This document shows, one piece after another, positions 41,952 through 46,799 of a stretch of 46,799 bases of DNA (its first letter is position 1; every line of letters starts with the position of its first letter). The DNA is from an uncultured Sulfurospirillum sp. (GTDB lineage Bacteria; Campylobacterota; Campylobacteria; Campylobacterales; QNZT01). Made by a program: the position numbers and the translations under genes. The notes below the pieces were generated by a model that saw nothing but the letters and a program-made list of their open reading frames with translations, ran no database searches and was not told the origin of the DNA. The DNA is taken from the NCBI GenBank assembly GCA_964384355.1, contig CAYLLC010000004.1:3724-50522 (forward strand). Direction: 5' to 3'.

Positions 41952-42607
41952 GCGGGGCGCCTGACCAGATAGCCGACGGCGCGGACATTGACGATAAAAT
42001 CCTCCTTCAGGACGCGCCGCAGGCGGTTGATCTCGGCGATGATCGTGGCGTTGTCGATCTCCATATCGTCGTAGACATCGTCCCTGAACATATCGTAGGT
42101 GACGGTGCGGTTTCTGTTGCGTGCCAGCAGGGAGAGGATCTGCGACTGCCGTCGGGAGATGGGCTGGCTTTCGTTCTGAAAATAGAGCGTCTCGGTGGCG
42201 GTGTCGAAGCTGTAGTTTTCGCTGAGGCGGTAGTGCTGCTGGCGTATATCGCGGGTCTGCATGATTTTGTCGATGCGCAGTGTCAGCTCCTTGAGGTGGA
42301 AAGGCTTCTTGAGGTAGTCGTAGCAGCCCAGATCGTAGGCTCTGGAGATGTCGGTGATATCGACCAGTGCGCTGATGTAGATCGCAGGGGTCTGGATCTT
42401 CTCTGCATGCAGTCGCTCCAGCAGCGTCAGGCCGTCGATGCCCGGTACGCTGATATCGAGTATCAGCAGATCGAAGGCCCGCTTTTGCAGAATCTGCAGC
42501 GCTTCGCTGCCGTCGCGCAGCGATTCGACGAGGTGGCCCGTCTTGCGCAGATAGTCGGAGATGGCGTTGTTGAGGAGCTGGTCGTCCTCGAGCAGGAGGA
42601 TCTTCAT
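41948..42607 (-). CDS. OmpR/PhoB-family response regulator
   Basis: ILLLEDD, LILDI (phospho-Asp), DYLKKPF, C-terminal wHTH (I.RLR..VRAVGY). Confidence 0.9.
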
Positions 42608-44514
42608 CGCAGCGCCCCTGGGAAGTGGTAGCGAAAGGCGGTGCGCGTCTCGCTGGTGTGCACCTCGATACCGATCCCCTCTTCGTCGCAGATCTGTTTG
42701 ACCAGATTGAGTCCCAGCCCCAGGCCGTCGCGGTGGTGCGATTCGCGGTAGTAGGCGTCGAAGACCCGCTCGATGTCGTGGATCAGGAGGGAGTTGCTGC
42801 CGATTTCGAGCAGACAGCCGTCACGATCTCCCGTCAGTGTGATGGTGATCGTCTCATGCTCTTTGGTATATTTGATCGCGTTGGTGAGGTTGTTGTCGAC
42901 GATGCGCTGGAGTTTGGTCTCGTTGATCTTCAGGTAGATCTCGTCGCAGCTGCTGCGAAAATCGAAAGAGAGATTGGCAGCAGCGGCGACGATACCGAAA
43001 AAGTCGATGCGGCTGCGGATGAAATCGACCAGCGGGATCTCTCTGCGCGGGTAGTCGACCTGATCTTTGTTGACCAGATAGCTCAGATCGTCGTAGATGC
43101 CGTAGATGTTTTTCATCGCCGCTTCGATATTGGAGAGGTAGCTCTCTTTGCCGTGTTCGAGTTCGTAGAGCTCGATATTGTTCATGATCACCGAGAGCGG
43201 GGTGTTGATCTCGTGGATGGCATGCCGCAGGAAGAGCTTCTGCGAATCGAGCAGCTCCTGCGAATAGCGCTTCTGGGCTTCGAGTTTTTCGGCCTGTACT
43301 TCGTAGTCGTGTGTCGATTGCTGGATCAGACGGGTCAGTGCCCTGATCGTGCTGGCATGGTCATGCTTGTCTGGTGGAGGTGTTTTGCATGTGTCGGATA
43401 TCTGTCGTGTGACGGGCGGTGCTTCGGTGAGTGCGAGGACGGTGAGGGTCTGGTTGAGCAGCAGGTTCTGACGATCGCGATGATAAAACTCCCCGTAGGT
43501 GAAAAATCCCGCCGTCGTCGCCGCTTCGGCGAAGGGCTGGATCTCCGTCTCTACGAAGCCCGGCATATATCTGCGCCGTGCCATGCAGACATAGATGAAA
43601 AAGGTTTCGATATTGTCATGATAGAAGCCGCGGGAGGCTTCGTGCGACGGATGCATGATGAGGTTGGCGTTGCCGAATCCCAGCCGCACACGGTCCCCTT
43701 CACGGAGGTTGCCCGCGAAAGTGAGCGAATTGTCGGGGTGGCGGGCGATGACGGCGCGCGCGATATGGATGCCCCACCGCTTCGCGATCAGCGGAAATTC
43801 GATACCGGTGGCGGGAAGCGCTTCGGCGACCTCCTCCCCGAGATATTTGGCGTAGAAGTCGACGGCGCTGAGACCGTCGATGGTGTAGACCCGGTTTTCG
43901 ACGACGCTGTCGATCGTGTGCTCGATGCCGATCGGGCTCCAGTTGAAGTGGAAGTTGTTCTGCACCTGCAGGGTATCGGAGTCGAGTGCGACGCCGACGA
44001 CGCCTCTGGAGAGGAGCCGCTCCCCCTCCAGGACATAGGTCTGCATAAATTCGCTGTTGTCTCCGGCCATACCGCCTGCGACGATCAGATCGGGCGCGAC
44101 GGACTCTATGCCTTTGAGGAGCGATTCGCCGTTGCATGTGGTGCCGTCGCTGAAGAGGATCAGTGCTTTGGTCCTCCCGGTCGCCAGCTTGCGGGCGATC
44201 TCGGTGCCGTTGTCGTAGTCGTCTGTGTGCTCTGCAGAGGCGGATCGGACGGAGGTCTCGTCGAAGGTCGTGAAAGCCGCGACGGTATGGCGGGTGTAGA
44301 TCTTCGCACCTTCGACTTCACCGTCGGTGGTGGTGCCGATCGTGACGGCATGGGGGAGTGCTTTTCGGATCGCTCTGGCGGTGGAGAGGAGCATCTCATG
44401 GCCATGCCCGCAAAAGATCTGTACGAGGAGATTTTCGCTCCGGCGGTATCGGGAGAAGTCGATCGTACGATCGATCGGCGTGGTCGGATCGAGGGTGTAG
44501 TTGTCTGTTTTCAT
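42604..44514 (-). CDS. cytoplasmic FIST (NosP-like) domain sensor histidine kinase
   Basis: GTTTDGE, GGMAGD, CMARR, GFFTYGE FIST motifs; HEINTPL H-box, DNNLTNAIKY N-box, GLGLGL G2-box; no TM segment. Confidence 0.85.
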   Translation of the reverse strand: MKTDNYTLDPTTPIDRTIDFSRYRRSENLLVQIFCGHGHEMLLSTARAIRKALPHAVTIGTTTDGEVEGAKIYTRHTVAAFTTFDETSVRSASAEHTDDYDNGTEIARKLATGRTKALILFSDGTTCNGESLLKGIESVAPDLIVAGGMAGDNSEFMQTYVLEGERLLSRGVVGVALDSDTLQVQNNFHFNWSPIGIEHTIDSVVENRVYTIDGLSAVDFYAKYLGEEVAEALPATGIEFPLIAKRWGIHIARAVIARHPDNSLTFAGNLREGDRVRLGFGNANLIMHPSHEASRGFYHDNIETFFIYVCMARRRYMPGFVETEIQPFAEAATTAGFFTYGEFYHRDRQNLLLNQTLTVLALTEAPPVTRQISDTCKTPPPDKHDHASTIRALTRLIQQSTHDYEVQAEKLEAQKRYSQELLDSQKLFLRHAIHEINTPLSVIMNNIELYELEHGKESYLSNIEAAMKNIYGIYDDLSYLVNKDQVDYPRREIPLVDFIRSRIDFFGIVAAAANLSFDFRSSCDEIYLKINETKLQRIVDNNLTNAIKYTKEHETITITLTGDRDGCLLEIGSNSLLIHDIERVFDAYYRESHHRDGLGLGLNLVKQICDEEGIGIEVHTSETRTAFRYHFPGALR

Positions 44515-44630: not shown

Positions 44631-46127
44631 ATGGCATACGAGAAACCGGAGTTTTGGGAGAAGTACGACAACTTTATCGGAGGGGAGTGGGTCCCTCCCG
44701 TGGATGGGAAATATTTCGAGGATATCTCACCCGTGGACAACAGCGTGATCGCCAAAGTGGCGCAGTCGAATCGCAAGGATGTCGATCTGGCGGTAGCGGC
44801 CGGATGGAAGGCGTTCGAGAGCTGGGGCAAGATCTCCGTCGCGGAGCGCAGCGCCGTGCTCAACAAGGTCGCCGATATCATGGAGGAGAATCTCGAAAAG
44901 CTGGCGGTGGCGGAGTCGTGGGACAACGGCAAGCCGATCCGCGAAACGATCAACGCCGATATCCCGCTGGCGATCGACCACTTCCGATACTTCGCGAGTG
45001 TGATCCGATCGGAGGCGGGCAGTGTCGCCGATCTGGATGCCGATACCGTCTCGATGGAGATCCATGAGCCGCTGGGCGTAGTGGGGCAGATCATCCCGTG
45101 GAACTTTCCGCTGCTGATGATGGCGTGGAAGATCGCACCGGCGATCGCGGCGGGCAATGCCGTCGTCCTCAAGCCGGCGGAGCAGACGCCGGTCTCGGTC
45201 ATGATCTGGATGGATATGGTCAAGGATGTGATTCCTGCGGGCGTGGTCAATATCGTCAACGGATACGGACCCGAAGCGGGAAAGCCGCTCGCCACCCATC
45301 CGGACATCAAAAAGATCGGGTTTACGGGTGAGACGACGACCGGTCGCCTCATCATGCAGTACGCTTCGGAAAATATCATCCCCGTCACGCTGGAGCTGGG
45401 TGGTAAATCTCCCAACATCTTCTTCGAGAGCGTGATGGACGAGGATGACGCATTTCTGGACAAGGCGATCGAAGGGCTGGTGCTCTTCGCGTTCAATCAG
45501 GGTGAAGTCTGCACATGCCCGTCGCGTGCGCTGATTCAGGAGAGTATCTACGATGCGTTCATGAAGCGATGTCTGGAGCGCATCGAAAAGATCAAGATGG
45601 GCAATCCGCTCGAAGCCGATACGATGATGGGTGCACAGGCTTCCAAAGATCAGTACGAGAAGATCCTGCACTATATCGACATCGGCAAACAGGAGGGCGC
45701 CGAGCTGCTGACCGGCGGCGAGAAGTACGACAACCCCGCGCAGCCCGAGGGATTCTACATCAAGCCGACGGTATTCAAAGGCCACAACAAGATGCGTATC
45801 TTTCAGGAGGAGATCTTCGGCCCGGTGCTGAGTGTGACGACATTCAAAGATGAGGATGAAGCGCTCGAGATCGCCAACGATACCCTCTACGGACTGGGTG
45901 CGGGCGTCTGGTCGCGGGATGTGCATCAGGTGCACAAGATGTCCAGAGGGATTCAGGCGGGGCGCGTCTGGGTCAACTGCTACCACCTCTACCCCTCGCA
46001 TGCCTCCTTCGGCGGATACAAAAAGTCGGGTATCGGCCGCGAAACCCACATGATGATGCTCAACAACTATCGCCATACCAAAAACGTGCTGCAGTCGTTC
46101 GACAAAAATGCACTGGGATTCTTCTGA
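44631..46127 (+). CDS. aldB: NAD-dependent aldehyde dehydrogenase (AldB/ExaC/AcoD type)
   Basis: [45 protein letters not shown]. Confidence 0.9.
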
Positions 46128-46501
46128 TGGCTTACAGCAGAGTGAGTGTCACCGAGAAGGCCAAAGCGGTGATCGACCGGTTGCGCGAAGAACATGGGGA
46201 GCTGATATTTCACCAGAGCGGCGGATGCTGCGACGGATCGGCCCCGATGTGCTTCGCCAAAGGCGACATGCTGCTGGGAAGCCGGGACATCAAGATAGGG
46301 GAGATCCACGGATGCCCCTACTATATGTCCGAAGACCAGTTCGAATATGCCAAGCATACGCATACGACGATCGATGTGACGGAGGGGAGGGGATCGAGCT
46401 TCTCTCTGGAGATACCGCTTGGCTTGCGCTTCATCGCGATCTCGAGACTCTTCACGGCAGACGAAGAAGCGGATCTCGAACCGATCGAGTACAATGAGTA
46501 G
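46127..46501 (+). CDS. DUF779 family protein (usual aldB partner)
   Basis: FHQSGGCCDGSAPMC, GRGSSFSLE. Confidence 0.88.
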   Translation: MAYSRVSVTEKAKAVIDRLREEHGELIFHQSGGCCDGSAPMCFAKGDMLLGSRDIKIGEIHGCPYYMSEDQFEYAKHTHTTIDVTEGRGSSFSLEIPLGLRFIAISRLFTADEEADLEPIEYNE

Positions 46502-46525: not shown

Positions 46526-46626
46526 TAAAAAATGAGAGGGTACCCTAAAGGAGGCGAAAAGGTACCCTCTCTCAAGACTGTGATGAATGACTTTCTTGGC
46601 TGTCTGTCACTACTAATTTTCGTGAC
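46526..46626 (-). ncRNA. candidate small regulatory RNA (~100 nt) with anti-SD terminator loop
   Basis: promoter at 46633-46641; 5' GTCAC/GTGAC hairpin; 11-bp terminator stem plus U6; loop contains CGCCUCCUUU. Confidence 0.65.
46527..46571 (-). terminator. intrinsic terminator (minus strand)
   Basis: GAGAGGGTACC (46534-46544) / GGTACCCTCTC (46561-46571), preceded on the plus strand by A6 (46527-46532). Confidence 0.8.
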
Positions 46627-46632
46627 AAGAGA

Positions 46633-46641
46633 AGTATAACA
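46633..46641 (-). promoter_or_regulatory. extended -10 promoter TGtTATACT driving the sRNA candidate
   Basis: reverse complement of AGTATAACA; AT-rich upstream region 46650-46700. Confidence 0.65.
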
Positions 46642-46704
46642 AAATAGGAGTAAAATTATCCTTTTAATTTTTTACTAATTTATTTAGTAAAGTTTTTGTT
46701 AAAA

Positions 46705-46799
46705 TTATCCCTTCTGCTTCTGTGAAAGCTGCTGAATCATCGCTTTCAGCTCTGCGATATCCTCTTTGGTGGCGAGGCCCATTTCGTCGATCACTTCTC
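46705..46799 (-). CDS. 3' end of a partial gene (phasin-like coiled-coil tail)
   Basis: manual translation ..EVIDEMGLATKEDIAELKAMIQQLSQKQKG*. Confidence 0.5.
   Translation of the reverse strand, partial: EVIDEMGLATKEDIAELKAMIQQLSQKQKG

Follow-up and report, generated by a model that had tools for sequence, protein, structure and literature searches.

An unannotated small RNA (sRNA) gene of about 95-100 nt, located on the minus strand at positions 46626-46527 of the window, is very probably carried by one family of uncultured hydrothermal-vent Campylobacterales. The window is the whole stretch of DNA that was analyzed (46,799 nt; G000:C4:3724-50522), the right edge of which is the end of the contig, and the genome assembly comprises 2.06 Mb in 182 contigs with a G+C content of 54.6%. 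The promoter of the sRNA overlaps an inverted repeat, hereafter the box, which is probably an operator common to the sRNA and to genes for oxidative-stress defence and Fe-S assembly, as judged from its recurrence in front of these genes. The first-pass annotation had proposed an independently transcribed sRNA with an exposed anti-Shine-Dalgarno loop at this site, and this proposal is strongly supported at the sequence level, in that the element is conserved, has its own promoter and matches no Rfam family.

The extended -10 element, the GTCAC/GTGAC hairpin, the 11-bp stem, the loop and the U6 tract that had been placed on the minus strand were all recovered at their proposed positions (Table 1). 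The predicted transcription start at about position 46626 was derived from the spacing to the -10 element. The locus is contained in a gap of 203 nt between the end of the DUF779 gene (46501) and the stop codon of the phasin-like gene (46705). Just upstream of aldB is a gene for a histidine kinase with a FIST sensor domain (42604-44514, minus strand); this gene is overlapped on its other strand by a shadow ORF of 652 aa, which shows that long ORFs are misleading in this G+C-rich genome.

Table 1. Genes and predicted sRNA elements at the right end of the window (positions refer to the window).
Feature	Position	Strand	Remarks
aldB	44631-46127	+	Pfam Aldedh; runs toward the sRNA locus
DUF779 gene	46127-46501	+	Pfam PF05610, E 1e-42; convergent with the sRNA
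Phasin-like gene, 3' end	46705-46799	-	Cut by the contig end; the L028 orthologue matches Pfam Phasin
Operator-like box, 23-mer	46643-46665	-	Inverted repeat AGGAT-N7-CTCCT; core 46662-46646; centre about -28 from the predicted start
Extended -10, TGtTATACT	46641-46633	-	Hexamer 46638-46633
5' hairpin	46606-46626	-	GUCAC 46626-46622 pairs with GUGAC 46610-46606; from fold and covariation
Linker core GUCAUUCAUCACAGUC	46576-46591	-	16 nt; near-invariant in genera g1 and g7
Terminator hairpin	46534-46571	-	Perfect 11-bp stem; arms 46571-46561 with 46544-46534
Terminator loop UUUUCGCCUCCUUUAG	46560-46545	-	16 nt; contains CCUCCUUU at 46554-46547
Loop motif GCCUCCUUU, anti-Shine-Dalgarno	46547-46555	-	Family-invariant
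U6 tract, predicted transcript end	46527-46532	-	T-run kept in all aligned copies

The 111-nt stretch that holds these elements folds at -35.2 kcal/mol, as compared to -20.7 +/- 3.1 kcal/mol in 200 shuffled sequences, none of which folded as well (z-score -4.65, 0/200). In the ViennaRNA fold, two extra pairs close at the end of the terminator stem, giving a 13-bp stem with a 12-nt loop. With a stem of 11-13 bp that is followed by U6 and in which 11/11 pairs covary, the hairpin has the features of an intrinsic (Rho-independent) terminator. A simple promoter/terminator scan made no call at this locus; its rules demand a match to a -35 element and a loop of 3-8 nt, and because the architecture lies outside these rules, the blank is no evidence against the element. 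As the first-pass annotation had noted, no ORF with a Shine-Dalgarno site lies between the promoter and the terminator. The sRNA unit is touched only by a TTG-started frame of 84 aa (46575-46321, minus strand) and by a plus-strand frame of 35 aa; both are lost in the relatives, and no conserved ORF was identified on either strand.

The sRNA is present in a single copy in this genome according to a DNA search, which also recovered it, at 75-86% identity, from each of the ten other genomes in the genus. These matches are confined to positions ~46679 to ~46526, beginning shortly before the promoter and ending with the U-tract, and no alignment extends into the flanks. When 185,579 species genomes were scanned with an exact two-part pattern, 13 loci were obtained, all from uncultured MAGs (nine labelled Campylobacterales bacterium, four Sulfurospirillum sp.), which together with the copy in the window represent 14 distinct sequences. 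A first covariance model also recovered diverged copies in three further genera, and the rebuilt model identified the sRNA in 24 of the 32 genomes of the family, in seven of its eight genera and in 14 of its 18 high-quality genomes; the eight family genomes in which the model found no match include four of high quality. In a sample of the order, six of the nine family genomes besides the one studied were matched. Of the 141 genomes from other families in this sample, only three were matched, all of them weakly (E 1e-4 to 8e-3). Judging by this conservation and by the covariation described below, the element is more than chance, that is, it is a conserved gene and not a chance hairpin. None of the covariance models in Rfam 15, including those for OxyS, RyhB and the Campylobacterota sRNAs in that database, identified the sRNA as a family member; the five best matches (E 0.9-8.6) were all to eukaryotic or archaeal snoRNA or lncRNA models and far below the gathering scores. 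Six sequencing runs from three studies contain the locus, all of them DNA, which speaks neither for nor against expression.

Several single matches and loci were inspected by themselves. The weak model matches L059 and L060 in other families, and L057, a second match in the family genome G006, were unconvincing on inspection, and short DNA matches outside the family (L017-L020) were chance matches in AT-rich DNA. The match L058 (G092:C192:8478-8576, E 1e-4) comes from a different family in the order; an extended -10-like TGCTATACT is present there, as is CUCCUCCUUUU in the loop of a terminator, but the box is missing, and L058 may be an independent, unrelated analogue. Two diverged copies of the sRNA, each beside a queC gene, were found in G021 (L049 on C48 and L056 on C30), a genome with 6% contamination, and could stem either from two strains that were binned together or from a true duplication. 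In 8 of the 24 carrier genomes, the sRNA is located less than 500 nt from a contig end (173 nt for the copy at window positions 46528-46626), which is more than the contig sizes suggest. This excess and the variability of the downstream neighbours may point to strain-level rearrangement or to an assembly-breaking feature beside the locus.

Pairing was examined in a 17-sequence alignment that was fitted to the covariance model and is hence biased toward structure; in this alignment, standard pairs were observed in 97.3% of the cells, as compared to 75.8% in column shuffles, with 0 of 500 shuffles reaching the observed value. Sliding the partners by 1-3 columns reduced pairing to 30-56%. In total, 17 of the 20 pairs change on both sides, including 11/11 pairs in the terminator stem, 3/5 in the 5' hairpin and 3/4 in a weak middle helix, and the fraction of pairing cells was 99.5% for the terminator stem and 96.5% for the 5' hairpin. 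The compensations in the 5' hairpin (GUCAC/GUGAC, GUUAC/GUAAC, GUCGC/GCGAC and GUUGC/GCAAC) are visible in the unfitted alignment too. Fold, Rfam and covariation analyses, which had been named as checks on the proposed sRNA, thus returned a z-score of -4.65, no family match and two-sided changes in most pairs. Because G.U cells by far outnumber C.A cells (12 versus 1) and the U-tract is exclusive to the minus strand, the minus strand is taken to be the RNA.

The motif GCCUCCUUU in the terminator loop, with its flanks UUY and A (UUYGCCUCCUUUA, 13 nt), is identical in 25/25 copies. The motif is also unpaired in the minimum-energy fold of each of these 25 copies, with a mean unpaired probability of 0.93-0.98. 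The linker core, in contrast, is near-invariant only in genera g1 and g7, whose 14 distinct copies show a single C-to-U change in it, and is not kept in the more distant genera. The loop is therefore the part of the sRNA under the strongest constraint, being invariant across the seven genera, and its conservation in relatives, on which the first-pass annotation had staked its proposal, is the highest of any part of the element. The linker core may act as an additional seed or as the site at which a protein binds; the complement of its 16 nt has no good second site in this genome, the best one having two mismatches. The likeness of the loop described here is to the anti-Shine-Dalgarno core sequence, as the assembly contains no 16S rRNA gene.

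The TAnnnT hexamer is kept in 13/13 aligned promoters, mostly with a G two bases upstream (-14). Outside the genus, the upstream neighbour is a divergent queC gene in 12 of 13 loci (QueC by Pfam for one of them), and the sRNA therefore needs its own promoter. The -10 element and the box are conserved at a fixed spacing, which at the sequence level marks the sRNA as a stand-alone gene. Within the genus, the sRNA follows a co-directional block of genes for BatD, a Dabb protein, an OmpR-type response regulator and the phasin-like protein at a distance of 74-82 nt, with no terminator between the phasin-like gene and the sRNA. Read-through transcripts from the phasin-like gene are likely, because it is co-directional and not separated from the sRNA by a terminator. 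The downstream neighbour varies between DUF779-aldB, a DUF255 thioredoxin-like gene and a zwf-like gene, the last read by eye. The link to aldB-DUF779 drawn in the first-pass annotation is hence incidental. In L026 (G002) and L031 (G006), the same-strand genes after the sRNA were read by eye as zwf, a 229-aa gene and a 607-608-aa dehydratase-like gene, a set that by eye appears to be of the Entner-Doudoroff or pentose-phosphate type.

The most conserved DNA upstream of the sRNA is a 19-bp inverted repeat that the promoter overlaps. The box precedes the sRNA in 23 of 24 loci, the exception being the copy L054, and in 17 of these 23 its distance to the 5' hairpin is 20 nt. The same box was identified before nifS in 27/28 loci (the exception is a paralogue at 61% identity), before sufB in 7/7 loci, before a tpx-like (thiol-peroxidase-like, Redoxin/AhpC-TSA) gene in 18/20 loci (shuffled upstream regions, 0.003) and before the gene for superoxide reductase (desulfoferrodoxin) in 23/27 loci (shuffled upstream regions, 0). 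The conserved promoter inverted repeat is thus common to the sRNA and other genes, as is the case for members of a regulon. In this genome, the box directly follows the -10 element of nifS-nifU and of the start of a sufB-like gene at a contig edge, and is also found before thiG and a Ham1-family gene. The spacing of 4 nt between the box and the -10 element is equal in the tpx-like and sRNA promoters.

We built a matrix from the sRNA and nifS sites and scanned it over the 2.06 Mb of the genome. The sRNA promoter scored the highest (29.8 bits), followed by nifS, the sufB-like gene, thiG and Ham1, and the next matches were a thiC/ispD-like divergent region, the tpx-like gene and the superoxide reductase gene. 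Strong sites are thus few, and they sit at stress and Fe-S genes rather than at promoters in general. The box-like site between thiC (C126:129-1463, minus strand) and the ispD-like gene is located at C126:~1577-1599 and scores 18.2 bits; this site in front of the gene for the radical-SAM protein ThiC and the thiG site suggest that thiamine or sulfur-transfer genes belong to the same putative regulon. A further conserved element, TTAAG-N5-6-TTTTAAT, was observed ~20-35 nt upstream of the nifS box in g7 and g8 (L088, L091-L095, L098), and may be a site for another regulator.

Three Fur-family genes were identified in the genome, at C32:9588-9950, C24:5389-5715 and C36:7440-7784. The nearest model is Helicobacter-type Fur for one of them and PerR for the other two, with all scores below the equivalog cut-offs. 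In our reading, the core of the box resembles the 7-1-7 operators of the Fur family, such as that bound by holo-Fur in Helicobacter pylori, which is described as a 7-1-7 inverted repeat in a passage of PMC3950669. The nifS gene of H. pylori is reported to be controlled by iron, oxidative stress and Fur in a passage of PMC4541418 that cites Alamuri 2006. A PerR/Fur-type repressor is thus the predicted regulator to bind at the box. An IscR-type regulator was considered for the box and rejected, no Rrf2/IscR-type gene having been found in the genome. Likewise, autoregulation of the Fur-family genes through the box was rejected, the box being absent upstream of all three (best scores -4 to -19 bits).

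For the loop, the first-pass annotation had proposed trans-acting translational repression in a bacterium that lacks Hfq. Hfq was indeed not found in the genome. Potential targets were scored on the output of a crude custom gene caller, which predicted 2040 genes (89% coding) and whose choice of start codons favours Shine-Dalgarno sites; such sites were observed at 58% of the crude gene starts, as compared to 9.8% of control windows. A target scan over all possible start codons was abandoned, as it was swamped by purine-rich sites inside genes. Against the ribosome-binding sites of 1947 crude starts, pairing averaged -9.75 for the loop and -9.0 for the reversed loop, and the first percentile was -17.8 versus -17.25. 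No enrichment of iron-protein targets was seen in the loop-pairing scan. The exact complement of the 13-mer loop gave 66 matches in 32 genomes, as compared to 13 for the reversed control; about 24 of the 66 are the sRNA gene itself, and among 30 examined sites the remainder are accounted for by a second candidate sRNA, by gene-internal sites and by unrelated genes.

A screen of five genomes for AAAGGAGGC in front of a start codon yielded one cross-genus pair, a molybdopterin/4Fe-4S enzyme with a Tat signal that we read as napA. The ribosome-binding site of napA pairs with the loop of the respective genome at -12 to -18 kcal/mol in ten genomes from seven genera, and the napA of the genome studied here ranks 60 among the 1947 starts. 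A napA query of ten genomes other than this one and G015 gave no match in G016 and G012, of which G016 carries the sRNA and G012 has no covariance-model match. The nitrate reductase gene napA is thus put forward as the only recurrent candidate target, and its pairing may reflect merely the strong Shine-Dalgarno site of a highly expressed gene. Other candidates were rejected: a nitroreductase-like gene (-21.3 in this genome, only -3.5 to -11.3 in 13 orthologues), pgi (-19.4 in this genome, mean -9.2 over 29) and enolase, which is an accessory paralogue present in only three genomes. The copies of this paralogue in G003:C253 and G001:C95 are 86-88% identical to C105:1906-3189 of the genome studied here and have one in-frame TAA each. 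The first-pass annotation accordingly holds in part, namely for the sRNA with its exposed loop; trans-acting repression would be a putative action of the loop, no specific target having emerged: napA recurs as a candidate, the loop scarcely exceeds its reversed version and the top candidates fail in the relatives. Blocking of ribosome-binding sites is nevertheless the favoured action of the loop, because an exposed, invariant anti-Shine-Dalgarno loop is a classic seed, and we regard the chances for and against such blocking as evenly balanced.

The second candidate sRNA is about 180 nt long and is located at C13:424-606 on the plus strand of the same genome (locus L135), flanked by a thioesterase-like gene and by the end of dnaE. 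The loop of its 5' hairpin contains the identical 13-mer UUUCGCCUCCUUU and is followed by another CCUCCUUUU motif. An extended -10 element and a strong terminator are present, the fold z-score is -6.5, and there is no Rfam family match and no stress box upstream. A DNA search identified it in 8 of the 10 other genomes of the genus and in none of 21 genomes of other genera.

A different interpretation of the element is that there is no separate sRNA, the hairpin serving only to terminate the phasin-like gene and the conserved stretch being its 3' UTR. The arrangement within the genus, where the phasin-like gene is co-directional, ends 74-82 nt upstream and is followed by no intervening terminator, would fit this interpretation, but upstream of the sRNA in the other genera is almost always the divergent queC, the -10 element and the box are kept at a fixed spacing, and it is the box, rather than the stop codon, at which conservation begins. 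Termination of the gene that ends at 46705 as the sole role of the hairpin, which had been named as an outcome that would speak against an sRNA, is incompatible with an upstream gene that differs between genera and is usually divergent, and we consider it very improbable that the stretch is just a 3' UTR. We attach hardly any probability to a type I toxin-antitoxin or small-protein gene, in which a hydrophobic plus-strand peptide (MNDFLGC...) would be encoded behind AAAGGAGG and the minus-strand RNA would be its antisense partner. The plus strand does read AAAGGAGG in the hairpin loop, with an 18-codon hydrophobic frame 28 nt beyond, but this spacing between the Shine-Dalgarno sequence and the start is too long, and the alignment, as we read it, shows the frame preserved solely at invariant nucleotides, with a shift or divergence after seven codons in the relatives. 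Moreover, changes in the helices compensate base pairs rather than codons, and the counts of G.U and C.A cells favour the minus strand.

Other interpretations accept the sRNA and differ in what the loop or the box does. The loop might not be an mRNA seed and might instead bind a protein or act as a decoy for a factor that recognizes the 16S tail, with the linker core as a second protein site. The invariance of the 13-nt loop across genera would agree with this, as no conserved mRNA site with matching extended complementarity to it was identified, and so would its performance on ribosome-binding sites genome-wide, which is no better than that of its reverse. Against this stands the fact that exposed C/U-rich loops complementary to the Shine-Dalgarno sequence are the usual seeds in bacteria without Hfq, as in RepG, CJnc190 and RoxS, and no candidate protein partner is encoded adjacent to the sRNA across the genera; we consider a protein or decoy role unlikely. 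It is similarly doubtful that the sRNA acts through its loop while the box is a general promoter element or an operator of queC, the RNA being constitutive or differently regulated. The divergent queC in the loci outside the genus, the copy of the sRNA without a box and the absence of the box from the Fur-family genes all speak for such an explanation, and at loci with a divergent queC next to the sRNA, the box could be used by this gene too. However, the box accompanies the sRNA within the genus, where queC is not adjacent, its distance to the 5' hairpin is fixed in most loci, and the few strong sites in the genome are found at nifS, sufB, the tpx-like gene and the superoxide reductase gene. 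A more general action, in which the sRNA would mimic the 16S 3' tail under control of a PerR/Fur-type repressor and, on Fe-S damage, titrate strong Shine-Dalgarno sites generally, appears rather improbable. If true, the sRNA would be a brake on Shine-Dalgarno-led translation that is induced by O2 or peroxide, not a gene-specific repressor, and the first Fur-family-controlled riboregulator known in the Campylobacterota.

The model that we prefer is that of a stand-alone sRNA in a PerR/Fur-type stress regulon that blocks ribosome-binding sites. One of the three Fur/PerR-like repressors would bind to the box at the sRNA promoter, and when the repressor leaves, the sRNA would be made together with the proteins for oxidative-stress defence and Fe-S repair. 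The unpaired loop, a copy of the anti-Shine-Dalgarno core, would then pair with AAGGAGG sites of target mRNAs and block the initiation of translation without the aid of Hfq. For this chain as a whole, we see it as a toss-up whether every step is right. The common box provides a testable model for how peroxide and superoxide defence, Fe-S repair and translation may be coordinated in these microaerophilic chemolithotrophs. The genes that share the box also sketch a candidate PerR/Fur-type regulon for a lineage of which the genome studied here shows no gene of the Rrf2 family (IscR-type).

To our knowledge, the sRNAs described in the Campylobacterota come almost entirely from Helicobacter and Campylobacter. 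They were reported not to be conserved between these two genera in a passage of PMC3847290. The sRNA described here occurs in at least seven genera of free-living relatives from vents, which is an unusual breadth for an sRNA in this phylum. A literature search that covered parts of the published texts, with supplementary tables outside its reach, returned no description of such an sRNA, or of a Fur-regulated sRNA, in the Campylobacterota.

Because it has no Rfam match and no homologue outside one family, the sRNA is a member of no described family; in function, it would be most like OxyS, RyhB/FsrA, RoxS, RepG and CJnc190, and it belongs to none of these. OxyS of Escherichia coli is an OxyR-induced sRNA of the oxidative-stress response, which represses by loop pairing at the ribosome-binding site. 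The sRNA in the window is similar to OxyS in its length of ~100 nt, its several stem-loops and its putative place in an oxidative-stress regulon, and differs from it in having no Rfam match, in its predicted repression through a Fur/PerR-type repeat instead of activation by OxyR, and in the lack of Hfq. RyhB, FsrA and PrrF are iron- and Fe-S-sparing sRNAs that are repressed by Fur. They are comparable in that the promoter here overlaps a repeat like those of the Fur family and the sRNA would be co-regulated with Fe-S assembly genes, and FsrA also uses C-rich stretches against Shine-Dalgarno sites; however, there is no homology to them, and the partners that share the box are genes for a peroxidase, superoxide reductase, nifSU and suf, not for iron uptake. 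RepG of H. pylori and CJnc190 of Campylobacter jejuni are from the same phylum, act without Hfq and have an accessible C/U-rich loop as the likely seed, but the sRNA is not homologous to them, and nothing convincing was found outside the one family. RoxS/RsaE of the Firmicutes differ in phylum, sequence and regulator, and have several C-rich regions as compared to the one CCUCC in the terminator loop here. The likeness to these sRNAs is in a link to redox conditions, predicted for the sRNA here, in the presence in many genera and in unpaired C-rich motifs, which in RoxS/RsaE pair with the Shine-Dalgarno sites of metabolic mRNAs.
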